DNA of 64,000 bases from the sequence record OL631481.1; one strand, given 5' to 3'. Below the pieces are notes generated by a model that had not been told where the DNA came from, did not search any database, and saw nothing but the letters and a program-made list of their open reading frames with translations. This document shows positions 2,946 to 64,000 of this stretch, in pieces. Made by a program: the position numbers and the translations under genes. This stretch comes from Escherichia phage ECML-183-2. The first letter of the stretch is position 1. Each line of letters opens with the position of its first letter.

Positions 2946-5613
2946 TATAACCGGAAGGAATGTTGTTATAATCAGAAAGTTTTGTGCAATACCTGAATAG
3001 GTAACTATTAGCTACTCCGCCTAATGTATTTGTTAATGTTGTTCCTGTTCCTGTAAGATTTGTGCATCCACTAAAGAAAGAAGATAATGCTCCACGTTTA
3101 CCACAAACAGTTAACCCTGGGTTGTCATTAAAGATCTTATTAAAATCTGTAAGTCCTAAACAACCTTGGAATGTAGCTGTTAAAGAGGTCACTTTCGTTG
3201 GAATATTATCAAACATTCCTGCTGGAACTTCTGCAAGAGAGGTGCAATCTTTAAAGGTGTAAGAATATCTTGTAACTTTTGATAAATTTTTAAATAAATC
3301 AGAAGGAATAGATGTTAAAGACGTACAACCTTCAAACGTGCTTGACATTGTTGTCATCGAAGGAAATAAAGTATCGCTGAATAATCCTTCAGGGATAGCT
3401 GTCAAACTTGTGCAGCCAGAGAAAATACCACTTATAGACGTTCCGGTGTAAGATGTGTTACTGAAACAATCAGAGGTTATTCGTCTTAAGTTAGCACAAC
3501 CTTTTAAGAATTGTGAGGCTGGGCTTGTAGAATAACTAATCCTGTTGCCGCCCCATAATTCTAAAAGACTTGGGTTTGCTTCCATAGACACTTCCACACT
3601 ATTAACTACTGAAGCACTTGCAAATTCAATAGCCAGTCTATATTCTCCTGCGGGATAACTATCCACTGTAGAGAAAGCTTTGTTTCTAAATATTACTTTA
3701 CTTGAAGGAACTACAACGTCATCCACCTTAACTACAAAGTTAGCTGGTGTAACAGTACCCGATAAAGTTGGGAACGTAATCGCCCCATCTGCCGAGTGGT
3801 TGAAATATCCGTTTAGAACCGTTAAACTACTACTCGGAGATGGAGCTAACTCCTTTCCCGCAACAGCGTTCACCGTTAAATAAGAACTATCAGAAGCGGT
3901 AACAACACCTTGATATGTAGCTGTGCAACCAATTCTACAACCACCATCACCAACACCAGTTATTACACCAGTTGTAGGATCTACTGTAGCAACATTAGGA
4001 TCTGTAGTTGTATACTCAACAACCATACCAGGTAAGCTTGCTGCTCCTGTTGGCGTTATTTCTGCTACCATTGTTTGTGTTGTTCCTACATCCATCGCAG
4101 ATAAGCTAGGAGTGTAAACACTTAATGTTGAAGCATATCCTCCAGAGGTATCTGATAAAGTTGTTCCTTCAGCGTTTAAGGCTGTCATACCCGCATCAAA
4201 ACCACCTTCTGCATGGAAAGTCATTACACCAGTAGACGATATTGTCATGTTTGCAGGGGCAGAAGAAGTGTATTTAATATTGAAAAGTTTACCTCCTTCT
4301 GGGCTAACAGAATGTGTCAACTGTTTAGTTCCACCTACAATACAAATTCCTAAAGAATCTGTAGTTAAGCCTGTTGCCAGAATATCGCCCGTAATCACGG
4401 AGCTTGCTATTGGTGTGAATTTATTATAATTTAGACCACTATTGAATAGATACGAGGCTTTCCCATCTTTCCAAATACCGGAATAATACATATCTCCATT
4501 ATAAACGAAAAAGGTTCCTTGATAACCTAATTGGTTAGTAATATCCATATTCAGCGTATGAACGCTTGTGAGCTTGTTTATATCCCAGGAACCCACTCCT
4601 TCAGGTTTAACTGGTTTTCCCACTTGGAGTGGATCTCCGCTCGCAGAATCATACCCCAAACCTAAGTTTGCAGTGTAGTTCTTACCAATAGCCCACAAGG
4701 AATTATTGATCCCAACGAAAAAAGAGTGGCGGCTTGGTGGAAATTTCCATGTTGAAAAACCTGCTGCAAAGGTGTCCAGTTTAGTGTAGGTTGTTTCTGT
4801 ATTAGATCTAACATATAAGTAGTTTACTGTACCCGCGCCACCGGAGGTATCTCCTACAATTATTGTCTGGGAAACTGTATTGATGTAATCTTTGACATAC
4901 ACTGTTTCAGTAGTGGATATCGTGGCATTGACAAAAGCGGTTGTTGTGTTATTATTACCTGCTAAACCTTTACTGGCTCCACAAACACGCAAGGTTCCCA
5001 CATTGTTGACATAAGAACATTGATTGTAGCCTGCATCAAAAGCAACTGCTGCACTTGTTATCTGACGAGGAGTAGAAACTTCGTTAGTAGTACTTGCACC
5101 TAAACTACCTACTGTGTTTTGACCTGATCCATAAAGAACACCACTATTCATTAACCAGAGAGTATTGTTATATCCTCCCTTAACCTCTTTAAGATTAGCT
5201 AAAGAGATAGTCCCTGTTATTACAGATGGAAAGCTGGTCCAAGTAGTTACACATGCATCCGTACCACCTGCTGCTATAGATCCTACCAACCCTGCTGTCA
5301 ATCCTGAATATTGCCATCCCCCACTGTTAGTTTTAATAACAAAACAACGATCTGCGGTAAACACATCCGCTACTACAGTAGAAGCTAAGTGGAAATTATT
5401 GAATCGTGCACTACGAGTTCCATCTGCAATCTCACCAAAGAGGTTTGCGCCTTGAGTAAACAATCTACCATCATTAAGCAAAATTGCTAAACTACTGTTA
5501 GAATTACCAGCGTTATCTGGGTAATCTAAAGTAATTACTTTTTTAACAATACCTGCTGGCAGAGGAACGACACCAGTGCTGGTCATAATAGTAAATATTG
5601 GAATTGGAAACAT
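2941..5613 (-). CDS. tail fibre / receptor-binding protein with RCC1-like repeats, Ig-like (Big_2-like) domain and BspA-type leucine-rich repeats
   Basis: 890 aa; N-terminal G-rich propeller-like repeats, central Ig-like region, C-terminal repeated CTSLTxIPxxLF units. Confidence 0.55.
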   Translation of the reverse strand: MFPIPIFTIMTSTGVVPLPAGIVKKVITLDYPDNAGNSNSSLAILLNDGRLFTQGANLFGEIADGTRSARFNNFHLASTVVADVFTADRCFVIKTNSGGWQYSGLTAGLVGSIAAGGTDACVTTWTSFPSVITGTISLANLKEVKGGYNNTLWLMNSGVLYGSGQNTVGSLGASTTNEVSTPRQITSAAVAFDAGYNQCSYVNNVGTLRVCGASKGLAGNNNTTTAFVNATISTTETVYVKDYINTVSQTIIVGDTSGGAGTVNYLYVRSNTETTYTKLDTFAAGFSTWKFPPSRHSFFVGINNSLWAIGKNYTANLGLGYDSASGDPLQVGKPVKPEGVGSWDINKLTSVHTLNMDITNQLGYQGTFFVYNGDMYYSGIWKDGKASYLFNSGLNYNKFTPIASSVITGDILATGLTTDSLGICIVGGTKQLTHSVSPEGGKLFNIKYTSSAPANMTISSTGVMTFHAEGGFDAGMTALNAEGTTLSDTSGGYASTLSVYTPSLSAMDVGTTQTMVAEITPTGAASLPGMVVEYTTTDPNVATVDPTTGVITGVGDGGCRIGCTATYQGVVTASDSSYLTVNAVAGKELAPSPSSSLTVLNGYFNHSADGAITFPTLSGTVTPANFVVKVDDVVVPSSKVIFRNKAFSTVDSYPAGEYRLAIEFASASVVNSVEVSMEANPSLLELWGGNRISYSTSPASQFLKGCANLRRITSDCFSNTSYTGTSISGIFSGCTSLTAIPEGLFSDTLFPSMTTMSSTFEGCTSLTSIPSDLFKNLSKVTRYSYTFKDCTSLAEVPAGMFDNIPTKVTSLTATFQGCLGLTDFNKIFNDNPGLTVCGKRGALSSFFSGCTNLTGTGTTLTNTLGGVANSYLFRYCTKLSDYNNIPSGYK

Positions 5614-5654: not shown

Positions 5655-7679
5655 TTATCGTGTTACAACAACCATGTCCACGATATTACCCACACCAGGA
5701 TACGTTAATTGCAAAATTGTTACTGCGTTAGCAGTAGTTGCTATTTCTGTATCATTCAGTGCTCCATAAGACGCATCTAGTGTAACCGTGTGTCCCGTTG
5801 TATCTTGAATCAAATAAATCATTGCTGAAAATGCTTTAGGTTTTGTAGATCCAGTGACACCAGGCCATGCTCCAACTGTCAGAGCGTCAGTTACTGTAAC
5901 AACATACATATTGGAAGTTCCAGAAGGAGTCCAAGATGCTCCAGAGTTGGCAGTAGTTGTTTCAAGTTCCATGAAACCTGCTGTAACTCTAGTTGGTGTT
6001 ATAGCTTCTGTAGGATCTGATCCTGATATTTCGATCCAGTTCCCATCAGAACGACCATACGTCAAGCCGTCTTGAGGTGCTTCTGGTATACTAGGAAGAG
6101 TTCCTATAAGTGTCCATGTAGAAGAATCTGTTTTCTTAAACACTGCTCCAGTGGTAGTATTGAAAGCGTAATCATTGATAACACCATCACCTGCGACTGG
6201 ATTAGTTGTTGCTACAAACCACTGTGCGCCGTCCTTACCGTTGGTTCCATCAGTACCGTTGGTTCCGTTTGTTCCAGGATCACCCTTATCTCCTTTATCC
6301 CCTTTTTCACCTTTGTCGCCTTTAATACTTCCCATGTCAACAAAAGATGCTGAATTGGTGTCTTGATCGTAGGTATAGATGTAAAGATTACTAGTGTCTT
6401 CAGTTAAGTAAGCATCACCGTAGTTATTATAAACAGGGAGAGCTTCGCCGTTTGCAACATGACCTTTAGCTGTAATAGATCTACCACCCAAACTACCTAC
6501 ATTGAGCCACGTTTGATTGTCGTCGATCCACACGTAAAGGTCATTTTTTACAATGTAGGCATCACCAACCTCCGCTACAGAAGGTAATTCTGAAACATCT
6601 GACAATTCACCATTTACAGAAAGACCTGCACCAACCGGACCTTGGATACCTTGAACACCCTGTTCACCTTGTGGACCAGGATCTCCCTTATCTCCTTTGT
6701 CACCCTTCTCTCCTTTTAAGGAAGCAACAAAATCTACTTCTGTCCCTTCATTACCAGCATCCAGCCAACTTTGATATGCAGATTTACCTTCATCTCCATC
6801 TGTTCCATCAAGACCGTCTTTACCTGCCTCACCTTGTGGACCTTGAGGACCAACAATATTACCCATGTTGACCCAAGCTGTCCCATTAGAGACATAAAGA
6901 TTACCATCGATAGAGTACGCTTGGCTTACGTTTTCAGAGTTAGGTTGTGGTAAGTTACTTGTAGAAGGCAAATCCCCACGATAATCAAAACCGTTGGCGT
7001 TAACACCAGGTGCTCCCTGTGGCCCTGTAGGACCAACATCACCTTTATCACCTTTTATAGAGGTAAGAAAGTCATAAACAGATCCTGTATTACCATCTGC
7101 CAACCATACCTCATAAGCTGATTTCCCTTCTGGCCCAAGAGAAGAAATAAGTTTCCAAACAGAACCATCCCAAGCGTAAATCACATCACCTACGATATAA
7201 CCATCTCCTGCAATGTTACCTGTAGATGGTAGTTCACTAGTGCTTGCTAATGATCCCTTAATATTAAGTTGAGCACCAGTATCTCCTTTCAAAGAAGCAA
7301 GCCACTGGGCTTCTGTTCCAACAAAACCATTATCAAGTGCGATCTGATAAGCCGATTTACCAGCTTCAGGTATTGCTTCTGACAAATCATCGATCTGTTG
7401 TTGCACTGCCGTAAACTTGGCATTGATAATTGCTATATCATCAGCGGTCCCAACACTTTGCCATGCAAGGGAAGAAATACCACCTGTGGTGGCTGGCGTA
7501 GAGTTTGCTGGAACTACTTTAGGAAAAGTTCCTTTCCATTGGTAATAATTCCCTTCTGCTGCTAACAGCAAAACTTCACGGGAATTACGTAATGTAAAAC
7601 CTGCCTCAAAGCTGCGACGTTTTCGATAAGTAGCTTCTACCAGATCGGCTATCGCACTATTAGGTCTTGTTAAATTCAT
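5655..7679 (-). CDS. collagen-like repeat tail fibre protein
   Basis: 674 aa with several Gly-X-Y runs (GDKGDKGDKGDPGPQGEQG, GEKGDKGDKGDPGTNGTNG). Confidence 0.6.
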   Translation of the reverse strand: MNLTRPNSAIADLVEATYRKRRSFEAGFTLRNSREVLLLAAEGNYYQWKGTFPKVVPANSTPATTGGISSLAWQSVGTADDIAIINAKFTAVQQQIDDLSEAIPEAGKSAYQIALDNGFVGTEAQWLASLKGDTGAQLNIKGSLASTSELPSTGNIAGDGYIVGDVIYAWDGSVWKLISSLGPEGKSAYEVWLADGNTGSVYDFLTSIKGDKGDVGPTGPQGAPGVNANGFDYRGDLPSTSNLPQPNSENVSQAYSIDGNLYVSNGTAWVNMGNIVGPQGPQGEAGKDGLDGTDGDEGKSAYQSWLDAGNEGTEVDFVASLKGEKGDKGDKGDPGPQGEQGVQGIQGPVGAGLSVNGELSDVSELPSVAEVGDAYIVKNDLYVWIDDNQTWLNVGSLGGRSITAKGHVANGEALPVYNNYGDAYLTEDTSNLYIYTYDQDTNSASFVDMGSIKGDKGEKGDKGDKGDPGTNGTNGTDGTNGKDGAQWFVATTNPVAGDGVINDYAFNTTTGAVFKKTDSSTWTLIGTLPSIPEAPQDGLTYGRSDGNWIEISGSDPTEAITPTRVTAGFMELETTTANSGASWTPSGTSNMYVVTVTDALTVGAWPGVTGSTKPKAFSAMIYLIQDTTGHTVTLDASYGALNDTEIATTANAVTILQLTYPGVGNIVDMVVVTR

Positions 7680-7744: not shown

Positions 7745-10700
7745 TTAGGTTGTTGGCACATCTACCACTGGTGTTGGGCGAATAACCGCAGTATTACCTA
7801 CAGAAACATTACTAGAATCGTTAGGTATGGTTTTGATTCTAACTCCAGCACTCGTAGGCGTTACAATCGGATCTGCAATGTCTATTTTAACTGGGTTAGT
7901 CCACGTATCATTATCTTGATAAGGTGCACGAGTAATAACTGTGTCCAAATCTGCTCCACCTACACCAGCACCAGGAATACGGATACGTGTTCCTGCTGAC
8001 AGAGGATAGTGATACAACCAAGAAGCGTTTGTTGCTGTCCCATTAGGAGTCAAGTTCTGTGTCAGGAAGGTATCTCCTGCTTGTGTAGCTCGAATACCGA
8101 AAGCTGGGATATCTGGAATGTATGCCCCACTTGTTGTTACAAGGAAGAACGTATTATCCGCTTTGACTATCATATCCCCTTTGTCAAACTCCTTCCCTGT
8201 TGGGAAATGCATCCCATCAATGTTTCGGCTAGGGTTAGGCTCTAAGTAATAAACTTTGCTAGTTGTCCCTACAATAGCTCCAATACCACCTGCGATATTG
8301 GTATACATATTAGCTTCAACATTACAGTTGACACGATGAATATCCGAGTAACGGCAACGGCTCCACTGTGGACGACCAGTAACCATCGTCTTGCCATCTG
8401 GGTAACAGTTTACGTTAACCATCTCAAGAACAGATTTTTCTCTACGGAAGAATCCATCATAAAATGTCCCTGGACCAGATTCAGGTTGACCAACACAATC
8501 AAAGATATTACAGGTGATGTTAGACATTGAAAGCCAAGAAGCTACACCGAACAACTGCAACGCAGCACAACGGATATTCTCAAAGCTGACTCTGTTTTCA
8601 TAACCTGGCCCAGCGGAAACTCCTGCAAAAACACGCCCAGTTTTGGTGTGAATGTTACGAACAGAATAGTTAAAGCATGGGTTTGAAGGTCTGCCCTGTG
8701 CCGGAACTACCGGATTACCCTCTTCGTCCAGAACTGCGTTAGTTCCCCACTCCAAATAAATCATACGGATATTACTTGCAAGTGTGCTACCGTCTGTTTT
8801 AGGCTCTCCATAAACACCATCAATCGTAAAATCTTTACTTCCATACATTACAACTGCGCCAGTTGCCAAACCTGTTCCAACAGATACAGTTTGATCTGGA
8901 TCGCCATGAATGTTTTCGATAGAAATATTACGACCAACTTCTACGTGGACAATCTGACGACAACGTTTTGCAAAAACGTTACGAATTGTAATATTCTTGC
9001 AATATTGATCATCAGGAATTCCGTAACCATATGGTCCTTTACCAGCTACACCAATACCGATACCCCAGTTGGACAGAGGAATAGGAGCGTTAGTCCCATC
9101 GATATTAGACAGGTAAATATTCTCAATCACACAACCATCATCATAATGTTTATTGATGACGTTCAGTTCTATTGCATCACCTTGCATGTCCATGAAGGTA
9201 AGGTTACGGAAGACACCGCGTGTTACTGGTTCCCCTGTTCCTTGTTGAAGGATGCCATATAACCCGTTTTTAAAAGTACAGTTATCAATTTCAAAAGTAC
9301 CTGATATTGGGTTGCCTTGGAATACCAGGCTACCAACTTGACCTGCGCGAGGGGCACCGTCCCACAAACAATCGAACATGCGCACAGCACCACCCCAATA
9401 CATAACACGAGAGTTACGGAAAGTTGTGCCTTCTACTGTAGCATTTTGCACACGATAGTCGCGTTGACCACGGAACACACCCCCACGCAAAGTGATACCT
9501 TGAATATCAAAAGAGCTTGTCGTGAAAGTCATATCGCAACCGTAAGCATCGAGAATCTTGCTTTTCGAAGCTTTTGCTGCTAACAGTGCCGCTTGGAAAG
9601 CTGCTTCTGGTGTGGTATATGTTGTTGTGTTGTTAGCAAATTCTGACAAGTAGACAACATCGAATAAATCGTTGTATGTTCCACCACGAGGGGTTAACAG
9701 TCCTTCTGTATTGGTCAGAACCCATGCATTTGGACCTAATCCACCGCTTGTCTCCAATGTATCGGAGGCCAAAATACTTTTTGGTAAACTTCCAGCCCAA
9801 CGATAACGACCAGCACCACGTCCAATCGTCTGATTTTTAGCTGTCAGAGTTACGTTATTACCAAAGCTTGTAGGCAAATGAACAAACTGTCCACGTTCAA
9901 CAGCTAGTGCAGAAAGATCTACAGATCCCCCAGAATAAGTCATTACTCCAGAAACAGACAAAGATGTTAAAGTTCCTGTGATGTTAGGAGGTAATGTGTA
10001 GGAAGACTGTGCTACTGGATCATACAGAGCTTTAATCCCTGTTAACGATTGACCTGCTATTGCGTAAGCCACCTCATCATCTAACAAACCATATTTACGA
10101 GCAATAGTTTGCAGAGGGACTTTATCCATGCTTTCTGTTAGTTCTTCCGTTTTTGTTTCTAAACTAACAAGACGATTCTCTAGGTTAGGATCTGTATCTG
10201 CTGAAGCTACGATTTTACCAATATAAGCAAAAAGCTTGTTTGGCAGTCCTGTCGCAGGATCGTGTCCCAAAGGTTCAGATAAGATGATCTTACTATCTTC
10301 TATGCGGAAAGCTTCTCCCAGAACCTGAATAACACCATTGATCGTAACAATAGCACTATCAAAGATGTAGGGAGGACTGATTACTGTTTCATAACCAGTT
10401 GCACCAGAATATACCCAAGGGGTGACTTCTGTTGCCAATTGTTCTGTTTTCAGTCCCCACAATACCCAGTTGTTATCTCCTACTGGAGTCCCTTGCATAG
10501 GGATTGGGTTAACCAATGTAGCGTTAGGGGCGTAGTAATAACCGCTCAATACTCCATTCTGGAAATAACGAAGTTGGTTAAAAACTGTTTCGTTTGTGCC
10601 TTGCGCCCAATCTAATGGGCTTTTAAAGAAAAAGTTGTCAACAAGGGCTTTTCTCAGGGTTGGTATCAACCCTGATTCTGTTTCAATACTCTCTGTAGCA

Positions 10701-35209: not shown

Positions 35210-36325
35210 TTATTGTTTCTGGGCTTTTTTAAGTTCAGCAGCTTTCTGACTAATCAGTTCAGAAGAAGATTTAGCTACAGGTTGAGTATTGATCACATCA
35301 ACACCACGTTCTGTTCCAAATTCTTTCTTAACTGCGTCCACTTCTGCACGTGCTTTTTCGAATGCTTTGACGATAGTTTCAGCGATATCTTTATTGTCTA
35401 CCAGATATTTAACGAGAGCTTCAACTTTGTCTTCTTCTACGAAAGAATAGGATTTAACAACAGTTGTATATTCTTCTTCGATACGAGCTTGTTCAGCTTT
35501 ACGAAGTTCTTCTGCTTCCTGTTCTGCCTTAGCGATTTTTTCCTGTGCTTCAAGTTCTGCGGCTGCACGTGCATCTGCGGCTGCTTTTTCTACAGCTTCA
35601 GCGATCTGTGCTTTCATCAGTTCTTGGAATTCAGCAGATTTCAGGAATTCTTCTTTGTTGATATTTTCCAAAGGGGTTTCTCCTTTATTGATTCCAGTTG
35701 TGTTTGCAGATTTATCACCTGCGGGGTTAGCCTCTGCATCCACAGAGTTTGTATTAGCTTTAGCGTGAGCTTTCACTAAATAATCTTTAACTTGACTTTG
35801 TTTCAAGGAACTCTTAACGAGATTACTCAAAGCATCGTCTAAAACGTCCTCAAAGAAATCAATGGAGATCATTACATCACCATCAACAACTTGATAATCA
35901 GTAACACGAACAACAGGTTTAGCAACCTCTTCAACTTCAACATTCAGTCCGTCAACTTTAAAGCCAACAGAGAACATACCGTTATCTGAACAGAAAATTG
36001 CAACGTTCGCATCGAAGTCAGCATCAATAACGTAAACCCAATCCCAACCAGCTTCAAATTTTTCACGCACTTTTTCAGAAATGCGATCCATCACTTGTTG
36101 AATATAGCTTTTACGTAACTCTGTAACATCTTCTCCCATTTTAGTGAGAGCTTCTAACTTTTCAAAAGTTATGTCTGGAGATCCGTCTGACTTAAATAAA
36201 AGGGGGGTATTATAACCAGATGCCGCTCCACCTTGAAAATCAAAAGTGTAAGCAATATGAGCACCTAGTGACTCTTCCGTAGCTTTTCCTGAAAAGTCTA
36301 CGTTAGTTAAATATGTATTTGCCAC
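35210..36325 (-). CDS. scaffolding protein (possibly protease-scaffold fusion)
   Basis: 371 aa; C-terminal Ala/Glu/Lys-rich coiled-coil region. Confidence 0.45.
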   Translation of the reverse strand: MANTYLTNVDFSGKATEESLGAHIAYTFDFQGGAASGYNTPLLFKSDGSPDITFEKLEALTKMGEDVTELRKSYIQQVMDRISEKVREKFEAGWDWVYVIDADFDANVAIFCSDNGMFSVGFKVDGLNVEVEEVAKPVVRVTDYQVVDGDVMISIDFFEDVLDDALSNLVKSSLKQSQVKDYLVKAHAKANTNSVDAEANPAGDKSANTTGINKGETPLENINKEEFLKSAEFQELMKAQIAEAVEKAAADARAAAELEAQEKIAKAEQEAEELRKAEQARIEEEYTTVVKSYSFVEEDKVEALVKYLVDNKDIAETIVKAFEKARAEVDAVKKEFGTERGVDVINTQPVAKSSSELISQKAAELKKAQKQ

Positions 36326-36327
36326 GA

Positions 36328-36807
36328 TTAGTCCTTCTTGACTTTAACGCCCATTGCGCCTATACTCAAACCTTTAAGAACGCCGTCTTTACGAGCTTGA
36401 TATAATTCAGGGTCGTTGAATTGGATTTTAACGAGGGGAGTTCCTTCCACAACGAGTTCGTCACCAATGTAACAATCGACTTCATTTACCCAAGCTTTAA
36501 TTGGAGAAAACTTATCGGTGTTCTTCATGTGACCAAGATTACCACTAATGTTGGTAATATTCTCATTGAAGTTGTCAACCATCTTCCTGATTTCCAAATC
36601 AGACATGCGCTCTCCGTGGAGATCGTCTTCTTCAGGTGGACAATACAAGACCTCAATAACCTGCATCTTTTCTTCATCAAATTTATTTTGTTTGACTAGA
36701 GTTTCAGGTTTTTGAGATGGTATAGAATCTTGTTGGGATTCAGAATTCTCTTTAAAACCAGCGAAGGTTTTGAAGAGTTCCCACAGTGTATCTTTATTGA
36801 GTTCCAT
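36328..36807 (-). CDS. head morphogenesis protein
   Basis: 159 aa ORF between portal and scaffold. Confidence 0.4.
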   Translation of the reverse strand: MELNKDTLWELFKTFAGFKENSESQQDSIPSQKPETLVKQNKFDEEKMQVIEVLYCPPEEDDLHGERMSDLEIRKMVDNFNENITNISGNLGHMKNTDKFSPIKAWVNEVDCYIGDELVVEGTPLVKIQFNDPELYQARKDGVLKGLSIGAMGVKVKKD

Positions 36808-36843
36808 TTGAAACCTCTTAAAAACAGATATCCCATAAATCTT

Positions 36844-36872
36844 AGTCTACAGGATATTTGTTGTTTTGTCAA
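36844..36872 (-). promoter_or_regulatory. sigma70-like promoter TTGACA-N17-TAGACT with AT-rich UP-like element
   Basis: Minus-strand -35 at 36867-36872, -10 at 36844-36849, AT-rich tract 36873-36900. Confidence 0.45.
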
Positions 36873-36900
36873 TAGAAAAATTAAAAAATATTAAATATTT

Positions 36901-38466
36901 TTAATTCGACAGGTTTTGTGCTGAAGGATCTAAAGCAGAAACAGTATCAGACGTTCCAGTTCCCGCTGTAGCTAAACCATCTCCTGATCGTGAAGTTTTG
37001 TCAGGCATATAGTTATCCATGAATTCAAAGAATTTCTCTTTATTGGCAACAATATCGTCAGGGATGCGATATTCAAAACCAATTTTTTCAAGGAACTCGT
37101 TAATAACTTCTGGGGTTAAAGGTATTGCACCAGAGGCTACCAACTGCTGAATAGCTTTAGCATTTACTTCAATATCAGGATCACCCATTTCACCACTGAC
37201 AAACTTAGGCATATCTTCATCAGAAAGGAAGATATTGTTTAGTCGTAGTGTTTGAGGGATCAGTTGAGAGTTTATAGCTTCTACAACAATATCTACATCT
37301 CGCTCAATAAAATGAGACAATAGTGTTTGTTTGTTGTCAGAAAGCGCAAAACTTCCTGCATCACCATCACCCATAATCAACACACCCGCACCAAAGCGGT
37401 TATAAATATCTAGCTTGCGTTGTTTGATTAGTGCTTGAGTGTCAAACTGTTTACCCGTGCCATCAACACCTTGGAATACAAGATCGTATTGACGCATCAC
37501 TGTGCCTTCATAAACGTCTGAAGGCAATACCATGTAGGCTTGCTCACCAGAGTGCAGGTTAGCGATGTTGGCTTGGAGAACTCGAAGAGATTGTGCTTCA
37601 TCCCCAGCAGGATCTAAAGATGCCCTGTTTAGAATGTCACTTGGAACCTTAAGAACTGGCATACCGCCTAAATCTTTAGATACCCCAATAACCTCAAATT
37701 CCTGAATAAGAGATTTTTCACGCCAGCTACGATATACAGCTAAAAGCGGACTAACTCCTAGTGGGTTATTCTCTGTAATGTTACTACCAACAAATAAAAC
37801 TTTACTGAAAGGAATTTCTTTAATACCAGTTTCTAAAGTTGTATTACCTGGAGCTAACATCGTATTGGTGATATTCTGGTTAACAGATAGAATAGAACGT
37901 CCGTCTGCCGAATATGTAAAAGGTTGAGCCATGTGAAGAGTGTCTTGTGGTCTAAAAGCCAGTTTGGTCAATCGCCAATACCCAAAGTAAGGACTTTTAG
38001 GATCTTCATCCAACTCATAAACTTTCTCTGCGAATGCAAAACCATATTGCTTATATGTCAAAAGTGATCTAACATATTGACGTAGAGGGGCTTGCATATT
38101 GCGTAACATGTAATCAATAAACTTAGCAGCTTTTCTTGACTTTGCCGAGTTTACATTGTATTTTATCTTGAAATCAAAGAATGCTCTATCTACAAAGATA
38201 TATGTAGCGTCAAGAGCAGTAGCTACATCAGGGTCTTCACCCATCTCTTTAAAAGTGCGAATACATTCTGGGAAACGAGTCTCATAAGGTTGCATGAAAT
38301 TCGTAAATGCTTTGATTGAGTTTAATCCGATCGTTCCTATTTCAGGTGACAGGAGTAACGTTTTCTCTTTCTCTGCCTCTTTTGTTGGAGAGAGAGCAGC
38401 TTTATTTGCAGCACCTTTGTCCCAGTATTCTGACTTTTTAGTGTACGTTCTTTTTCCTGTTGACAC
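36901..38466 (-). CDS. portal protein
   Basis: 521 aa directly downstream of large terminase; GTG start with GGAGGA RBS. Confidence 0.6.
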   Translation of the reverse strand: MSTGKRTYTKKSEYWDKGAANKAALSPTKEAEKEKTLLLSPEIGTIGLNSIKAFTNFMQPYETRFPECIRTFKEMGEDPDVATALDATYIFVDRAFFDFKIKYNVNSAKSRKAAKFIDYMLRNMQAPLRQYVRSLLTYKQYGFAFAEKVYELDEDPKSPYFGYWRLTKLAFRPQDTLHMAQPFTYSADGRSILSVNQNITNTMLAPGNTTLETGIKEIPFSKVLFVGSNITENNPLGVSPLLAVYRSWREKSLIQEFEVIGVSKDLGGMPVLKVPSDILNRASLDPAGDEAQSLRVLQANIANLHSGEQAYMVLPSDVYEGTVMRQYDLVFQGVDGTGKQFDTQALIKQRKLDIYNRFGAGVLIMGDGDAGSFALSDNKQTLLSHFIERDVDIVVEAINSQLIPQTLRLNNIFLSDEDMPKFVSGEMGDPDIEVNAKAIQQLVASGAIPLTPEVINEFLEKIGFEYRIPDDIVANKEKFFEFMDNYMPDKTSRSGDGLATAGTGTSDTVSALDPSAQNLSN

Positions 38467-57803: not shown

Positions 57804-58379
57804 TTGGCAGGTGAACCAAAAATAATGTGGGGTGAAGGAACACCCTGGAAAACACAAGCGGAATTTTATACTTATCTTAGGGGATGTTTTAGAAAAGCAT
57901 GGATGAGACACCCTAATAAAATTAAGGTTATCAATGCAAGGCGTTTTAAAGTTGATCGCGTAGATAAAGACGGCAATGTAATGCTAGATAAGAAAACTGG
58001 AAAACCAAAACAAGTTTGGAATTGTGAGTGCGAAATATGTGGACATAGAGGAGGAATGAAAGACTTCCAAGTGGATCATATTCACGCAGCAAAACAACTT
58101 CAATGTTTTGATGATATTCCTCTTTTTGTTTTCCGTTTGATCTATGTGAAAGAAGAAGATTTGCGAATGGTTTGTAAATTGTGCAACTCTATTCTTGCTT
58201 ATGCAGACAAGCAAGGCATATCTTTTGAAGAAGCAAAAGCTGAAAAAGAAGCGATAGCTTTGTGTAGAGCTAAGAAAGATAAAGCATGGCTGAAGAAGCG
58301 TAAAATAGAACCTGAAAGCACAGTAGCAAAACGCCGTAAACAAATAGTCAAAATCCTATTGCAGGAAATTGAAAGTTAG
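57804..58379 (+). CDS. HNH endonuclease (free-standing homing-endonuclease-like)
   Basis: CECEICGH...QVDHIHAAK...CKLCNS His-Me finger pattern; start codon (TTG 57804 or ATG 57825) uncertain. Confidence 0.55.
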   Translation: MAGEPKIMWGEGTPWKTQAEFYTYLRGCFRKAWMRHPNKIKVINARRFKVDRVDKDGNVMLDKKTGKPKQVWNCECEICGHRGGMKDFQVDHIHAAKQLQCFDDIPLFVFRLIYVKEEDLRMVCKLCNSILAYADKQGISFEEAKAEKEAIALCRAKKDKAWLKKRKIEPESTVAKRRKQIVKILLQEIES

Positions 58380-58415: not shown

Positions 58416-59024
58416 ATGCAGATAGTATGTGATTGGGATTTAGTTGTGGCTCCGTTAGATGTTGCTTGGTTAGAATGGTTGAATAAGATTAGTGGCCTTG
58501 GTGTTAAAATCGACACATTCACAAAAAATGCAGATTATGATCTTACCAACTATTTTCCTGGTTTCAGGGAAGAGTTCAACATAGATCCTTACGGATTTCT
58601 GGATAATCCTCATCTCTACGATACTATGGGTTTTGTTCCAGGTATGCCAGATTTCTTAAAGTATGTTTCAAGGAAAGGTAGCAATCTTTTGATCGCGAGT
58701 GTGACAAAAGGTGGTCACTTAAGTTCTAAACATAAACATGTTTTAAGAACATTAGATACGATTGATTTTAGCAAAGGGTCTGGTAACGGCTTTTTTGCTA
58801 CGAAAGAAAAATACTTATTACCTTGTGATATAGCAATAGATGACAGGGCTGATAACCTATTATATTTTCCAGATGAAGTAGTTAAAATATATTTTAATAC
58901 ACCTTATAAAGATAACCATCTAGAAGAACTAAAGAAAAAACCAAATGTTGTGATCACAGGTTTAGAAGATCAGTGGCTAACATGTTTGGATGTTTTTAAC
59001 ACTTTGAACAATTTTAAAAACTAA
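58416..59024 (+). CDS. HAD-superfamily phosphatase (5'-nucleotidase-like or Pnk-phosphatase-like)
   Basis: N-terminal DxD (VCDWDL) and C-terminal AIDDR motif. Confidence 0.4.
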   Translation: MQIVCDWDLVVAPLDVAWLEWLNKISGLGVKIDTFTKNADYDLTNYFPGFREEFNIDPYGFLDNPHLYDTMGFVPGMPDFLKYVSRKGSNLLIASVTKGGHLSSKHKHVLRTLDTIDFSKGSGNGFFATKEKYLLPCDIAIDDRADNLLYFPDEVVKIYFNTPYKDNHLEELKKKPNVVITGLEDQWLTCLDVFNTLNNFKN

Positions 59025-59033
59025 GGAGAAAAA

Positions 59034-60032
59034 ATGACAAAACAGATTTCGGCTAGTATTATTGCACATTCCATCACTGAAGACGGAAAAGAGATTGTAA
59101 CTTTCGAACTTGAATATCCACGTATTATTCATTCAGAACTGATGACTCACCGCCTGTTCAGTCGTAACGCTGCTTCTAGCCGTGCTATACCTGTTAAAAC
59201 ACTGATCGAAATGGTGCGAAATCAGCCTGCTCGTCCTTATCGTTTTGGGGCTAACCAACCTGGTATGCAGGATAAAGGTGTTGATCATGACGCGCTTATT
59301 GATGCAGGTTATACTGCTCAAGAGTGGTGGGATCTTGCCGCGCTTAGTGCAGCACGTTTCGCAGAAGAATTCTCTTTGGCAGGGTACCACAAACAAGTTG
59401 CAAACCGTCTTCTGGAACCTTTCCAACGAATTAAAACAGTTCTGACAGCAACAGAATATGAAAATTTCTGGTGGCTACGTGATGACAAAGAAGCCGATCC
59501 TACTATCGAAGCTTTGGCTAAAGAGATGCACAGAGAGTATGAAGGATCTACACCAGAAGTGCTGAAACCAGGGCAATGGCACACACCTTATGTAGACCAT
59601 TTCTATGATAATATTGGCACAGAAGGTGACGATCATTTTGTTTTTGGTGGATACTACGTTCAAGATGAATCTGGAGAAGTTGTTGTGCTTACTTTGGAAG
59701 AAGCCAAAGCTATTTCAGCTTCGTGTTGTGCACAGGTTAGCTATCGTCGTTTAAATGCAACTAAAGATAAAGCTTTAGATATCTATGGTCGTTTGCTAAC
59801 TGGGCGCAAGGTTCATGCTTCTCCGTTTGAACATCAAGCCACCCCAATGCAAGAAACATGCGAACAATATGGAGAGAACTGTTTTGAAGATTTGTTTATC
59901 AATGCTCCTTGGGATTTTAACTCTTGGGAACCAGGTATTACCCATGTAGATCGTAATGGTAAGTTTTGGTCTGGCAATTTCAAAGGTTGGATTCAACATC
60001 GTCAACTTTTAACAAATCATACTAAATGGTGA
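59034..60032 (+). CDS. thyX: flavin-dependent thymidylate synthase ThyX
   Basis: ELMTHRLFSRNAASSRAIP fits the ThyX RHR-x7-S-x-R signature (first R replaced by T). Confidence 0.65.
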   Translation: MTKQISASIIAHSITEDGKEIVTFELEYPRIIHSELMTHRLFSRNAASSRAIPVKTLIEMVRNQPARPYRFGANQPGMQDKGVDHDALIDAGYTAQEWWDLAALSAARFAEEFSLAGYHKQVANRLLEPFQRIKTVLTATEYENFWWLRDDKEADPTIEALAKEMHREYEGSTPEVLKPGQWHTPYVDHFYDNIGTEGDDHFVFGGYYVQDESGEVVVLTLEEAKAISASCCAQVSYRRLNATKDKALDIYGRLLTGRKVHASPFEHQATPMQETCEQYGENCFEDLFINAPWDFNSWEPGITHVDRNGKFWSGNFKGWIQHRQLLTNHTKW

Positions 60033-60048
60033 TCTGTTTAAATAGTTA

Positions 60049-60076
60049 TTGACTTTAGTATTAGTTTTAGTATAAT
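60049..60076 (+). promoter_or_regulatory. sigma70-like promoter TTGACT-N16-TATAAT
   Basis: Near-consensus hexamers; upstream context AATAGTTATTGAC resembles the tRNA-cluster promoter motif. Confidence 0.5.
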
Positions 60077-60130
60077 ATAGCACAATACTGGGAGGAGGTG
60101 AGTCCTCCCATTCAAAATGAAGGAGAAAAT

Positions 60131-60541
60131 ATGTCATTAGTAAATACTACAACTTGGGCTACCGTAAGCATGTCTACTGTAATGTCTACCCCTATCTGGA
60201 AACTAGAATCAAATAAACACAATGGTAATATCCCACACGAGAAACAAAATGCTGTTATTAGAGCATCGCTTGTAATGCTGGGTATGGCTGAAGATTCACA
60301 CTATTCTGTTGAGCGTAATGTGAATATCCGAAGCAATAACGATAAGCGAGTAGTGTTTGCAAATACAACGCTTTTCACTTTCCCTGTTTCACCTAATTGT
60401 GGTTTTAAACGAATCTACCAAGAAAATGATATTTTTCATTTTGGTGATGAAGAATTTACAGGTTGGGGTGCGTCACATATTAAGATGGATGATTTCGGTA
60501 ACTCTTATGATCCTGCGAAAGCAGATGATACTAATCAATGA
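60131..60541 (+). CDS. hypothetical protein (start revised)
   Basis: ATG at 60131 after GAAGGAGAAAAT; ORF-track GTG start at 60098 sits directly on an SD-like hairpin. Confidence 0.45.
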   Translation: MSLVNTTTWATVSMSTVMSTPIWKLESNKHNGNIPHEKQNAVIRASLVMLGMAEDSHYSVERNVNIRSNNDKRVVFANTTLFTFPVSPNCGFKRIYQENDIFHFGDEEFTGWGASHIKMDDFGNSYDPAKADDTNQ

Positions 60542-60792
60542 GAGGGACAATGACTGATAATAAATATGAAGGCTGTGAAATCGAAGTCTATTTTGATGAA
60601 ACTGTTGGTTGTAATGTAACTGTAATTCTAGACACTTCAAAACGTTTATCTCCTAAAAGACAAGAAGCAGACCGTCGAGCAAAAGCAAAAGGGTTTGATG
60701 ACATAACTCATTTTGAAGGTTTTCTATATGCTAATGGACTTTTTAATGAAATGAAGTTCGGTTATGATGTAGATGTTTTGAATATGCATTAA
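60538..60792 (+). CDS. hypothetical protein
   Basis: 84 aa; ATGA overlap. Confidence 0.45.
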   Translation: MRGTMTDNKYEGCEIEVYFDETVGCNVTVILDTSKRLSPKRQEADRRAKAKGFDDITHFEGFLYANGLFNEMKFGYDVDVLNMH

Positions 60793-60808
60793 TAATAGGG
60801 AGGAGAAG

Positions 60809-63052
60809 TTGATTCGTTTTGTAACTAAATCTAACGGTAAGACAGAGGAGTTTAATCCAGAAAAACTTCGCAAGTGGTCTGAATTTGCAGCAGGTAAACT
60901 AAACTGGTCTGAAATTGAATTAGAAGCTGTGAAGCGGTGTTATGACGGTGTGTCTACACGTGATCTGCATAAAGCAATGATTGCAGCGTGTATTGACAAG
61001 AAAACACAAGCTTACAGTGATATGGCAGGAAGGCTTCTTCTGGGTATGATTTACAAACAGGCTCATGGGGGATACCACAGTATCCCTTCACTGAATACCT
61101 TTTATCATGATATGGTAGAACGTGGACATTGGGCTAAAATGGATTATACTGATGAAGAGATCAAAGAAATCGGTAAGATTGTAAAACATAATAAAAACCT
61201 AACTTATGGTTATTCTGTTTTACGCCAAATGGTAGATAAATATCTTATTCGAGATGCGGTGAACGATGTAGTACATGAGTCGCCACAGTTTCTTTTCATT
61301 GGTATTGCAATGAAGGTTATGGAGATCCAACCAAAAGAACGCCGTATAGAAGATATTAAAAAACTTTATACTTATGTTAGTGATCTTAAGATTAATCTGC
61401 CATCACCATATCTGACAACTCTACGAACTCCAATCAAAGGAAGTGCGTCTTGTTGTTTATTCCGTGCGGATGATACGGCAGAATCTTTAGCTATTGCTAA
61501 TTACTTAGCTCACGAATATACGTTGAATAACGCAGGTATTGGTGTTAATCTTCAAACTCGTGCCACAGGTCAAGGTGTTAAGAACAATCGTATTATTCAT
61601 GGTGGTCTTCTTCCGTATCTGAAATGGATGGAAGATAGTGTTGGAGCTTCGAAGCAAGCAAGCCGTGGAGGTAGTGCTACAGTTACCTTTACCATACTTG
61701 AACCAGACTTCGACGATCTGATTCGACTGAAGAATCCAACAACACCTATAGATAAACGAGTAGACAAACTAGATTATTCTATTGTTGTTAACCGTTCGTT
61801 CTTGCGTCGAGCAGCAAAAAACGAAGATTGGATGTTAGTTAGTTGTGATGATGCTCCTGAACTTTATGAAGCTTTGTATAAAAGTGAAGAAGAGTTTGAT
61901 GCAGTTTATGACAAAGTAAGCCGTCGTCGCATTAAGAAAAAATTTGTTAAGGCTCGTGATCTTCTGACAGAGATTATTGTTCAACGTGCAGAAACAGGAC
62001 GTATTTACATGTTCTTTGCTGACAACGTTAACAACCATACACCTTTCCTGGATACGGTGTATCAATCAAACCTGTGTCAAGAGATCTTCTTACCAACTAA
62101 AGCTTTCCACAGTATGCCGGATCTCTTTACTGGTGAGAATACAGAAGATCAAGAATTGGCTTTATGCTTCTTATCTTCTATTGTTGCTGGTCGTGTCTTA
62201 CCTGAAGAATATGAGGATGTTGCATACTACACTGTATTGACAATTGACAACGTTATTGAAACAATGGATTATCCATTTAAACATAACGAAATAACTGCTA
62301 AAGCACGTAGATCTATTGGTGTAGGCATTACAAACTTAGCGCATTACTTGGCAAGTAATTTTGTAAATTATTCAGATGCTTATGCTAAAAAATTAATGCA
62401 TGAACTTGCAGAACGTCATTACTTTTGGTTGGCAAAAGCCTCTCTGCGTCTGGCTAAGGAAAAAGGTAATGCGGAATGGATCGATAAAACCAAATGGCCT
62501 CAAGGTTGGCTACCAATTGACACTTATGCTAAAACAGTAGATAGTATCGGTAATTTTGATCTTAAAATGGACTGGGAAGGCTTACGTGCTGAAATCATTG
62601 AACAAGGTGGTATCCGTAACAGTGTCTTGGCTGCTATTGCACCTAATGAGTCCAGCAGTTTGGTAAGCAATACTACTAACTCTCTGTACCCTGTTCGTGA
62701 TACTATTATGTATAAACAAAGTCAGAAAGGTAGCGTATTATTTATTGTTCCAGACTACGAAAAACTGAAAATGTTCTACCAATCCGCCTGGGATACTCCG
62801 GCTAAAGACCTTGCAGAAATGTATGGTATCTTTACCAAGTTTACAGACCAAGGAATTTCTTGTGATTCTTGGTTAGATTATTCTAAATTGGTAGGGGGAC
62901 GTTTATCAGTTAAAGAAGAGATGAAATTTATTTTGAACTTTGCTAGACTGGGTGGTAAGTCATTGTATTACCTTAATAGTAGAACAAAATCAGCAGATTC
63001 TTTAGCACAAGAAGATTCTGAAGACGAAGGGTGTAGTGCCTGTAAAATGTAG
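60809..63052 (+). CDS. nrdA: ribonucleoside-diphosphate reductase large subunit (class Ia NrdA)
   Basis: N-terminal ATP-cone; active-site SNLCQEIFLP; GGIRNSVLAAIAPNESSS; C-terminal CSACKM; TTG start after GGGAGGAG. Confidence 0.8.
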   Translation: MIRFVTKSNGKTEEFNPEKLRKWSEFAAGKLNWSEIELEAVKRCYDGVSTRDLHKAMIAACIDKKTQAYSDMAGRLLLGMIYKQAHGGYHSIPSLNTFYHDMVERGHWAKMDYTDEEIKEIGKIVKHNKNLTYGYSVLRQMVDKYLIRDAVNDVVHESPQFLFIGIAMKVMEIQPKERRIEDIKKLYTYVSDLKINLPSPYLTTLRTPIKGSASCCLFRADDTAESLAIANYLAHEYTLNNAGIGVNLQTRATGQGVKNNRIIHGGLLPYLKWMEDSVGASKQASRGGSATVTFTILEPDFDDLIRLKNPTTPIDKRVDKLDYSIVVNRSFLRRAAKNEDWMLVSCDDAPELYEALYKSEEEFDAVYDKVSRRRIKKKFVKARDLLTEIIVQRAETGRIYMFFADNVNNHTPFLDTVYQSNLCQEIFLPTKAFHSMPDLFTGENTEDQELALCFLSSIVAGRVLPEEYEDVAYYTVLTIDNVIETMDYPFKHNEITAKARRSIGVGITNLAHYLASNFVNYSDAYAKKLMHELAERHYFWLAKASLRLAKEKGNAEWIDKTKWPQGWLPIDTYAKTVDSIGNFDLKMDWEGLRAEIIEQGGIRNSVLAAIAPNESSSLVSNTTNSLYPVRDTIMYKQSQKGSVLFIVPDYEKLKMFYQSAWDTPAKDLAEMYGIFTKFTDQGISCDSWLDYSKLVGGRLSVKEEMKFILNFARLGGKSLYYLNSRTKSADSLAQEDSEDEGCSACKM

Positions 63053-63063
63053 TAGGAGAACAG

Positions 63064-63720
63064 ATGAAGAAGGGTAAACGTAAAGTTACCGTTCTCACAG
63101 AGAGGGGAGAAATCCCCTTGATTGTGGATGTTGAACGTAGATTGTGGGAAGGTGGTGTTATCAATGGAAAAAGGGTTAATACATTCATAGATCCTTCCTA
63201 TGCAGCTTGGAAAGGCATGTTTAATCGTGCATATAGTATGGAAAACATTAGACCAGGTTATAAAGATGTTACCGTGTGTGATGCTTGGTTCACCTTTTCA
63301 AACTTTGATAACTGGTATCAAGAACATAACGTGGAAGGCTTTGTTTTAGATAAAGATCTTGTTCTTGAAGGAAATACTGTTTACTGTCCTGAATATTGTA
63401 GGTTTGTTCCTCCTTACATAAATACACTCTTAAGTTATGCTAAGAGGTATGAAAGAAAATACTTACTAGGAGCACATGTTAGGAAAGATGGTAAGATTTA
63501 TGCCAAAGCTTCTGGGAGCAAAGGTAAGCATTTAGGTTACTTCGCTACAGAGGAAGAGGCACACTTCGCTTGGCTAAAGGATAAAGCTAAGTCAATCAGG
63601 GAAACAGCGGATCGTTACAAAGAGGAAGAACATTTTTATCCAGAGGTGTACAACACTCTTGTAAACAAGGCGGATTTCTATTGGCACCTGGCGGAAACAA
63701 AAACAGTATTTCGAGGCTAA
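63064..63720 (+). CDS. homing-endonuclease-like protein with AP2-type DNA-binding domain
   Basis: KGKHLGYFATEEEAHFAW matches AP2 domains of phage HNH-AP2 endonucleases; sits immediately after nrdA. Confidence 0.45.
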   Translation: MKKGKRKVTVLTERGEIPLIVDVERRLWEGGVINGKRVNTFIDPSYAAWKGMFNRAYSMENIRPGYKDVTVCDAWFTFSNFDNWYQEHNVEGFVLDKDLVLEGNTVYCPEYCRFVPPYINTLLSYAKRYERKYLLGAHVRKDGKIYAKASGSKGKHLGYFATEEEAHFAWLKDKAKSIRETADRYKEEEHFYPEVYNTLVNKADFYWHLAETKTVFRG

Positions 63721-63725
63721 ATATA

Positions 63726-63747
63726 AAGGGGCTTCGGCCCCTTTTTT
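63726..63747 (+). terminator. intrinsic terminator
   Basis: AAGGGGC-TTCG-GCCCCTT hairpin followed by T6. Confidence 0.6.
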
Positions 63748-63761
63748 ATTGAGGAGAGATT

Positions 63762-64000
63762 ATGAGCACACTTATAGTTTTACCTGGAGTAACCCCAATC
63801 TACCGTCCTGGGTTTAAGCCTTTGTTGATTCCCCCTGAAGATTTTACCCCTGTTTGGTGTCACCATTATCTCGGCGGACTTCAAATAGCTAATATCCAGA
63901 TTTGGGAATCTTTTTATCCAGAAGCTACGGCTTACGCAATAACAAGGGCAAGAAGTGAAGAAACAGTGACTGTTATACTCGGTAGAAGCGTATGGCAAGC
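63762..64000 (+). CDS. hypothetical protein, 5' fragment (runs off window end)
   Basis: ATG at 63762 after GAGGAGAG; frame open to window end; N-terminus does not resemble NrdB. Confidence 0.4.
   Translation, partial: MSTLIVLPGVTPIYRPGFKPLLIPPEDFTPVWCHHYLGGLQIANIQIWESFYPEATAYAITRARSEETVTVILGRSVWQ

Follow-up and report, generated by a model that had tools for sequence, protein, structure and literature searches.

A probable free-standing IPA-HNH homing endonuclease gene downstream of nrdA in Escherichia phage ECML-183-2

Results

The gene downstream of nrdA

The stretch of DNA analyzed here, referred to as the window, comprises 64,000 nucleotides of Escherichia phage ECML-183-2 (sequence record OL631481.1). 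Near its end, an open reading frame (ORF) encoding 218 amino acids (aa) starts with an ATG codon 11 bp downstream of the stop codon of nrdA, the gene for the large subunit of class Ia ribonucleotide reductase (RNR). An earlier note on this DNA, made from the sequence alone, had described this ORF as a homing-endonuclease-like gene placed directly after nrdA. Direct reading of the sequence confirmed its coordinates, start and length (Table 1), as well as its position. The region is 95-98% identical to that of the phAPEC8-like E. coli phages (genus Phapecoctavirus, subfamily Stephanstirmvirinae), with phage vB_Ec-G1 being the closest public match (97.7% identity across 4 kb), and the RefSeq records of these relatives label the gene as “HNH endonuclease”. 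Its base composition does not differ from that of the genome (G+C fraction of 0.39 for both), and no paralogues of it were found in the window.

The ORF is preceded by a ribosome-binding site (RBS) and followed by the only terminator-like site present between positions 60000 and 64000. In genomes lacking the endonuclease gene, the same hairpin adjoins the nrdA stop codon, and hence it is the terminator of nrdA there. The best-scoring promoter-like site in the same 4-kb interval is located upstream of a block formed by two hypothetical genes, nrdA and the endonuclease gene. Because the ORF is inserted between the stop codon and the terminator of nrdA, it would share the transcript of nrdA and be translated from an AGGAG sequence of its own.

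The nrd locus is not disrupted

The nrdA gene upstream of the ORF is intact. Its product matches the Pfam families Ribonuc_red_lgC (barrel; E = 1.8e-97), Ribonuc_red_lgN (all-alpha; 3.3e-11) and ATP-cone (1.2e-4), as well as phrog_84 (1.5e-269), and it has retained the C-terminal CxxC tail. The earlier note had pointed out that the next ORF does not resemble NrdB, from which it suggested that the nrd locus had been disrupted or rearranged. The former is correct: the ORF starting at position 63762 and running off the window is a small conserved hypothetical gene of family phrog_17458. The latter is not borne out. In vB_Ec-G1 and ESCO5, which have the same arrangement as the window, nrdA is followed in turn by “HNH endonuclease”, a hypothetical gene of 112 aa, and nrdB, and nrdB starts about 340 bp past the start of the 112-aa gene in both vB_Ec-G1 (97.7% identity) and ESCO5. 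Since nrdB lies close downstream in these relatives, that of ECML-183-2 would be located just beyond the edge of the window. The alternative raised in the earlier note, i.e., an ORF conserved as a non-nuclease accessory gene with nrdB immediately downstream, is therefore right about nrdB, as judged from the relatives, but wrong about a conserved accessory gene, since the ORF is sporadic and mobile (see below). Thus, there is nothing wrong with the nrd operon itself; a selfish gene occupies its spacer, a frequent situation in lytic phages.

The 112-aa gene is a second presence/absence polymorphism in the nrdA-nrdB spacer. It varies independently of the endonuclease gene and lies outside the endonuclease cassette. 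The window contains it, as do vB_Ec-G1, ESCO5, ZCKP1 and phAPEC8, the last of which lacks the endonuclease gene, and a homologue exists in arall; nieznany, DE16, Mt1B1_P17, ABPW7, VEcB and phi92 do not have the gene. The ESCO5 and phAPEC8 orthologues match phrog_17458 (4e-62), a family of unknown function. In the retrieved stretches of two relatives the gene is located at positions 7091-7429 and 7766-8104, and similar RBS-like sequences are found at its boundaries (GAGGAGAGATT… and …GGAGGATTT).

The ORF belongs to the IPA-HNH family and has an AP2-type domain

The protein's N-terminal part matches two PHROG families annotated as “HNH endonuclease”, phrog_953 (2.6e-57) and phrog_374 (3.9e-41). 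Among representatives of clusters at 50% identity, 9,136 homologues were detected at E≤1e-3, of which 5,306 reach E≤1e-10. In tblastn searches, the family was found at 2,550 places in 1,496 phage records, the commonest hosts being Vibrio (phage ICP1 included), Pseudomonas and, for the barbaviruses, Rheinheimera. Each ICP1 genome contains two such places, matching residues 48-201 with 32% identity (E between 4e-15 and 6e-15). The best of these matches is the gene immediately 3' of the DNA polymerase gene, whose gp number is not stated in the record.

When the single ORF sequence was compared with Pfam and NCBIfam, no significant family was obtained and the AP2 threshold was not reached. A profile built from 139 family sequences did match solved plant AP2/ERF domains, with E values ranging from 1.6e-6 to 9e-3 (WRI1, 1.6e-6; ERF096, 1e-3; AtERF1, 2e-3), and 21 of the 139 members matched Pfam AP2 individually. 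In the model predicted by AlphaFold2, this region consists of three strands (residues 137-160) packed against a helix (residues 163-186). The AP2-type DNA-binding motif noticed earlier, KGKHLGYFATEEEAHFAW, corresponds to residues 153-170 and is thus supported at the profile level.

A divergent HNH-like N-terminal domain that is missed by Pfam HNH_3, combined with a C-terminal AP2 domain, defines the IPA-HNH family, 18% of whose members adjoin RNR genes (Barth, Dunham & Seed 2023, PMC10448857). Judged by its sequence, the endonuclease ORF is a member of this family. It was not found in the text-form supplementary gene lists of that study, which is the single work on the family that our literature search uncovered; there, the family is described and biochemically uncharacterised. 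Neither did we find a title or abstract on Phapecoctavirus homing endonucleases that deals with this gene.

Empty, occupied, remnant and scar alleles

The region downstream of nrdA was aligned at base level for seven genomes, and the junctions of other relatives were then added. This alignment, proposed as a check in the earlier note, revealed four kinds of alleles. The empty sites of phAPEC8, Mt1B1_P17 and ABPW7 read …GATGGTGGTTGTGAAGCTTGCAARATGTGA TGAAACT AGGGGCTTCGGCCCC. The occupied sites of the window, vB_Ec-G1, ESCO5 and nieznany read …GAAGACGAAGGGTGTAGTGCCTGTAAAATGTAG TAGGAGAACAG ATG…TAA, followed by a spacer of 6 nt, which is ATATAA for the window and nieznany and CAATAC for ESCO5 and vB_Ec-G1, and then by the same AGGGGCTTCGGCCCC hairpin as in the empty sites. 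Two other genomes have retained only parts of the gene, neither of which is annotated. Klebsiella phage ZCKP1 contains a remnant with an internal deletion (around positions 2465-2640 of the retrieved stretch), in which the first 33 nt and approximately the last 140 nt are kept, and DE16 contains a scar of some 18 nt (around positions 2954-3000 of the retrieved stretch), in which the ATG has changed into GTG and which is fused to the terminator. The AGGAG sequence is preserved in both.

In a census of 50,697 phage records, the junction was empty in 49 and occupied in 22, the records of ZCKP1 and DE16 being among the latter; duplicates between GenBank and RefSeq were counted. One further record, OQ031492.1 (Escherichia phage MRostami-2023b), has at positions 35784-37186 the length of an occupied site between the matched pieces, yet only 50% of the query aligned; this phage probably carries a more divergent allele of the endonuclease gene.

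Across five intact alleles, the ratio of nonsynonymous to synonymous substitution rates (dN/dS) was 0.05-0.13, including pairs with a dS above 1. Hence, the gene is real and under purifying selection.

The cassette has moved between genera together with the end of nrdA

Comparison of the window with ABPW7, which lacks the gene, revealed a single mismatch in positions 62573-63019 and dense mismatches from position 63020 onwards, which places a breakpoint at 63019/63020, 33 bp before the end of nrdA. All eight retrieved genomes that contain the endonuclease gene, its remnant or its scar have an nrdA tail encoding EDEGCSACKM, whereas the three empty-site Phapecoctavirus genomes encode …DGGCEACKM*. 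The tail is 100% identical to that of VEcB, a phage of the genus Justusliebigvirus, and the nrdA sequence just upstream of it is only 77% identical. The same discordance extends to the surrounding genes: between the window and VEcB, the flanking genes are 70-80% identical, against 100% for the 33 bp of the tail and 97.3% for the endonuclease gene, whereas between the window and ESCO5, which belong to the same genus, the values are 95-99%, 100% and 82%, respectively. The cassette, composed of the 33-bp nrdA tail, the gene and the terminator, is therefore nearly unchanged in Justusliebigvirus.

We initially read the altered tail as a recoding of nrdA that confers immunity. This interpretation was downgraded, because the Justusliebigvirus phage arall, which lacks the endonuclease gene, has the EDEG-type tail next to an empty site, …ATGTAA TGAAACT AGGGGGC (positions 1800-1890 of the retrieved stretch). 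With the occupied junction as a query, only the part encoding the EDEGCSACKM-type tail was matched in arall, cardinal and phiWec187, and of these we read the arall site as empty. The arall sequence indicates that this type of tail is native to Justusliebigvirus and was not created by the endonuclease gene. The 33 bp are therefore best read as a donor flank that was co-converted into Phapecoctavirus along with the gene. As the CxxC motif is kept in both types of tail, the function of NrdA should be unaffected.

A polymorphic site, a history discordant with that of the flanks and shared with a short stretch of nrdA, and the existence of remnant and scar alleles point to a homing gene, as they are the marks classically left when such a gene invades, is transferred horizontally with a short co-converted flank, and decays. 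The homing-endonuclease-like character attributed to the ORF in the earlier note is thus upheld as regards mobility, the site being polymorphic among near-identical phages and the cassette having moved between genera.

The nuclease-like domain lacks a conserved histidine

AlphaFold2 predicted the structure of the protein with a predicted local distance difference test score (pLDDT) of 93.6 for the full length and of 92.4 when only the domain was modelled. A four-stranded β region at the N-terminus, conserved only in the closest relatives (P0001-P0008 of the alignment), is possibly an extra module contacting DNA. It is followed by a nuclease-like domain in which both models predict a ββα arrangement, preceded by two helices. 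Six residues are invariant in the 139 sequences (R55, W75, K97, D98, Y107 and N120) and four are nearly so (L95, D96, P109 and C112), L95 and D96 being found in 90% or more. The alignment has no histidine position that is invariant or close to it. The motif LDKD is found at the end of the first strand, where HNH enzymes have a D-H pair. When read by eye, which is not a test, “YCRFVPPYIN” resembles “NLRWVTQKIN” of I-HmuI, and “LDKD” resembles “DHKD” minus the histidine. The domain contains only three cysteines (Cys72, Cys108 and Cys112); about three cysteine positions are conserved family-wide.

These results divide the earlier claim that the N-terminus resembles phage HNH-AP2 endonucleases. 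The matches to phrog_953 and phrog_374 agree with it; the lack of a Pfam HNH match, of similarity to the I-HmuI profile (see Discussion) and of a conserved histidine does not. The nuclease domain is not a canonical HNH domain. A ββα core, in the predicted structure, and an Asn ligand in the first turn of the helix would be shared with canonical HNH/His-Me finger enzymes of the I-HmuI type, but the catalytic histidine at the C-terminal end of their first strand is replaced by LDKD, and no similarity to the HNH_3 profile is detectable. Likewise, the HNH-AP2 homing endonucleases found in cyanobacteria, ciliates and phages (Magnani et al. 2004, cited through PMC10448857 and PMC5714182), and I-HmuI (PDB 1U3E), have a nuclease domain followed by an AP2 domain and are selfish phage genes; as portrayed there, theirs is a canonical HNH_3 domain with the D-H pair instead of LDKD.

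The predicted ββα domain may resemble that of PacI (PDB 3M7K/3LDY; His-Me finger group 20, Jablonska et al. 2017), a His-Me finger enzyme without a catalytic histidine that uses a tyrosine in the inter-strand loop and binds its metal through Asp and Asn (PMC5714182, PMC4081073). “PacI-like” free-standing HNH genes have been noted by HHpred in lactococcal phages (PMC12724721). Both PacI and the present protein lack the histidine, and the loop tyrosine and Asp/Asn ligands of PacI would have their counterparts in Tyr107, Asp96 or Asp98, and Asn120. As the invariant Tyr107 sits in the inter-strand loop, its position suggests a mechanism of the PacI type. PacI differs in being a homodimeric restriction enzyme with an 8-bp site and two Cys4 zinc sites per subunit and in having no AP2 domain, and similarity at the sequence level was not detected: profile searches against PDB sequences with the nuclease domain and with the 37-residue ββα core did not retrieve PacI, yielding only chance matches (for example, deoxycytidine kinase and an SH3b domain).

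Discussion

The proposed explanation and the points against it

We propose, with a probability of roughly 0.8, that the ORF downstream of nrdA is a free-standing IPA-HNH homing endonuclease gene inserted between the stop codon and the terminator of nrdA in a Phapecoctavirus. During a mixed infection, its product would bind the empty allele through the AP2 domain, and perhaps also through the N-terminal β region, and cut near the junction between the nrdA stop codon and the terminator. Repair by recombination with a genome carrying the gene would then copy the gene and a short donor flank into the cut genome. Our best guess for the target is the junction formed by the stop codon, TGAAACT and the terminator, since the motif ATGTRA-TGAAACT-AGGGGC of the empty sites has been conserved across the two genera and the insertion destroys it. 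Catalysis would be of the one-metal ββα type but lack the customary histidine; the metal would be held by Asp96 or Asp98 along with Asn120, and Tyr107, aided by Lys97, would take the role of the PacI tyrosine.

Several points weigh against parts of this explanation. Neither the ORF (E≤0.1) nor any of the 139 family members (E≤0.01) matches Pfam HNH or HNH_3. An hhalign comparison of the N-terminal domain of the family with a 120-sequence I-HmuI/HNH_3 profile gave a probability of 0.5% and an E value of 0.12, over an irrelevant stretch of 15 residues; the HHsearch link between IPA-HNH and HNH published previously (PMC10448857) was not reproduced with these alignments. The two Cys4 zinc sites of PacI are absent from the protein, and the residue-level correspondence between Tyr107 and the PacI tyrosine is putative. 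In the literature examined, no demonstrated cleavage activity was found for any IPA-HNH protein. The putative target follows solely from the sequence that differs between the alleles. Finally, the window stops before nrdB, and the placement of nrdB in this genome is taken from the relatives.

Other explanations

One alternative is that the protein is a domesticated DNA-binding regulator, for instance of nrd or neighbouring genes, that has lost its nuclease activity and whose ββα fold only binds DNA, like SMAD MH1. The catalytic histidine is found nowhere in the family, and His-Me fingers with neither the histidine nor a substitute for it are inactive DNA binders (PMC5714182). Moreover, the phi92 record labels its copy as “potential transcription factor”, and strong purifying selection fits any functional protein. 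However, one would not expect a regulator to be missing from two thirds of near-identical genomes, to decay by deletion, or to move across genera along with a short donor flank. The invariant Tyr, Asp, Lys and Asn residues have been kept and would be arranged as in an active PacI-type site, and many phages contain several members of the family next to essential genes (the 2,550 places in 1,496 records mentioned above). We therefore regard a regulator as unlikely. Loss of the gene is evidently tolerated, given the remnant and scar alleles, and Phapecoctavirus genomes are mosaic around the site anyway, with polymorphisms in upstream nrdA that are not linked to the gene. Both would fit an inactive relic of a homing endonuclease that persists by its linkage to nrdA and nrdB and is spread by ordinary homologous recombination in co-infected cells. 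Against such a relic, the low dN/dS, even at a dS above 1, argues for long-term selection on the protein, and undirected recombination could not easily produce a cassette that is 97% identical amid flanks of 70-80% identity and has its breakpoint just 33 bp away from the gene; the chances of a relic seem to us marginally poorer than those of a regulator. Nothing speaks for a chance reading frame or an artefact of annotation beyond the lack of a Pfam match for the single sequence. This reading is refuted by the thousands of homologues, the confidently predicted fold and the strong purifying selection, with the RBS of the ORF also counting against it, and we give it practically no weight.

Comparison with other systems and significance

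A homing endonuclease gene at this locus would not be the first one. The mobE gene of T4 and the hef gene of phage U5 encode proven free-standing homing endonucleases located between nrdA and nrdB (PMC2790892, PMC2988022). They occupy the same spacer in lytic E. coli phages, and the expected behaviour is alike, i.e., cleavage of the allele without endonuclease and co-conversion of the flanking nrd sequence. The nuclease folds are different, however, and not homologous: MobE is a canonical HNH enzyme, and enzymes of the Hef type are members of the Vsr-like (EDxHD) family (PMC3239194), which is also why we rejected U5 Hef as an experimentally proven relative. The resemblance is therefore one of position, not of ancestry. 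MobE and Hef both cut within nrdB, whereas the differences between the alleles studied here point to the junction of the nrdA stop codon and the terminator; and their activity is proven, whereas that of the present protein is predicted. A paper on UFV13, a T4-like phage, is irrelevant here.

With the IPA-HNH proteins of ICP1 (gp59, gp115-116 and gp209; PMC10448857), the present one has the two-domain core in common. Those genes are free-standing and lie beside essential genes, RNR genes being among the commonest neighbours (PMC10448857); here, the gene would lie between nrdA and nrdB and have its own RBS. Unlike them, this copy has the extra N-terminal β region (residues 1-42) and is devoid of the first of the cysteines usual in the family (RAY instead of RCY).

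A broader possibility, which we put forward tentatively and rate at somewhat less than an even chance, is that the IPA-HNH proteins are histidine-less “Tyr-metal finger” nucleases of the PacI type, with Tyr107, Lys97, Asp96/98 and Asn120 as the catalytic residues. The family comprises more than 9,000 clusters at 50% identity and has no Pfam model. If this possibility were true, a catalytic variant seen up to now in a single restriction enzyme and a few genes of giant viruses would rank among the commonest homing nucleases of phages. The well-sampled E. coli phages provide a natural allele series for this family, consisting of empty sites, two diverged occupied alleles, a remnant, a scar and a cross-genus transfer with a 33-bp flank, and hence a convenient system for testing both IPA-HNH homing and the histidine-less active site.

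Features and other genes of the region

The features of the locus are listed in Table 1.

Table 1. Features of the nrdA region in the window (positions in the window; all on the + strand).
Feature	Position	Strand	Evidence or remarks
Promoter-like site TTGACT-16-TATAAT, upstream of the block hypothetical-hypothetical-nrdA-endonuclease gene	60049..60076	+	11/12 positions; consensus match only
nrdA, class Ia ribonucleotide reductase large subunit, intact, 747 aa	60809..63052	+	Pfam and phrog_84
Last 33 bp of nrdA (…EDEGCSACKM*), travelling with the endonuclease gene	63020..63052	+	Co-segregation of the tail; identity with VEcB
RBS AGGAG, 5 nt 5' of the endonuclease ATG	63054..63058	+	Direct reading; kept in ZCKP1 remnant and DE16 scar
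Probable free-standing homing endonuclease gene, IPA-HNH family	63064..63720	+	phrog_953 2.6e-57; AlphaFold2 pLDDT 93.6; dN/dS 0.05-0.13; presence/absence census
N-terminal four-stranded β region, residues 1-42	63064..63189	+	Predicted strands 6-12, 15-21, 28-33 and 36-42 (AlphaFold2)
Nuclease-like domain, residues 43-128	63190..63447	+	Predicted two helices, then ββα (β94-96, β113-115, α117-122)
LDKD motif (L95 D96 K97 D98), end of first strand, where HNH enzymes have D-H	63346..63357	+	K97 and D98 invariant
Tyr107, inter-strand loop, candidate PacI-like catalytic tyrosine	63382..63384	+	Invariant in 139 sequences; putative PacI equivalence
Asn120, first turn of helix 117-122 (AlphaFold2), candidate metal ligand	63421..63423	+	Invariant in 139 sequences
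AP2/ERF-type DNA-binding domain, strands 137-160 and helix 163-186	63460..63621	+	Contains the motif at 63520-63573
Intrinsic terminator hairpin AAAGGGGCTTCGGCCCCTTT with T-run	63725..63744	+	Sole terminator-like site in 60000-64000
Small conserved hypothetical gene, 112 aa in relatives, running off the window; outside the endonuclease cassette	63762..64000	+	phrog_17458

A second gene annotated as “HNH endonuclease” is located further upstream, at positions 57804-58379 (+). It matches phrog_1985 (7e-66), and its Pfam HNH and Endonuclease VII signals are weak (0.03-0.04). Unlike the nrdA-linked gene, it was found in all three relatives whose annotation covers the region (phAPEC8, ESCO5 and nieznany). 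Between this gene and nrdA, positions 58416-60032 contain a cluster of nucleotide-metabolism genes. One of its products is an NT5C-like 5'-nucleotidase (Pfam, 9.4e-6); another is a ThyX-type thymidylate synthase that matches phrog_85 strongly and Pfam Thy1 only in part (4.6e-8; profile positions 59-190).

The nrdA stretch of this phage is more than 99% identical to those in records OP562383.1 (Acinetobacter phage ABPW7) and MG065650.1 (Campylobacter phage B15), and about 94-97% identical to that in MH252123.1 (Klebsiella phage ZCKP1). The host labels of these three records look doubtful.

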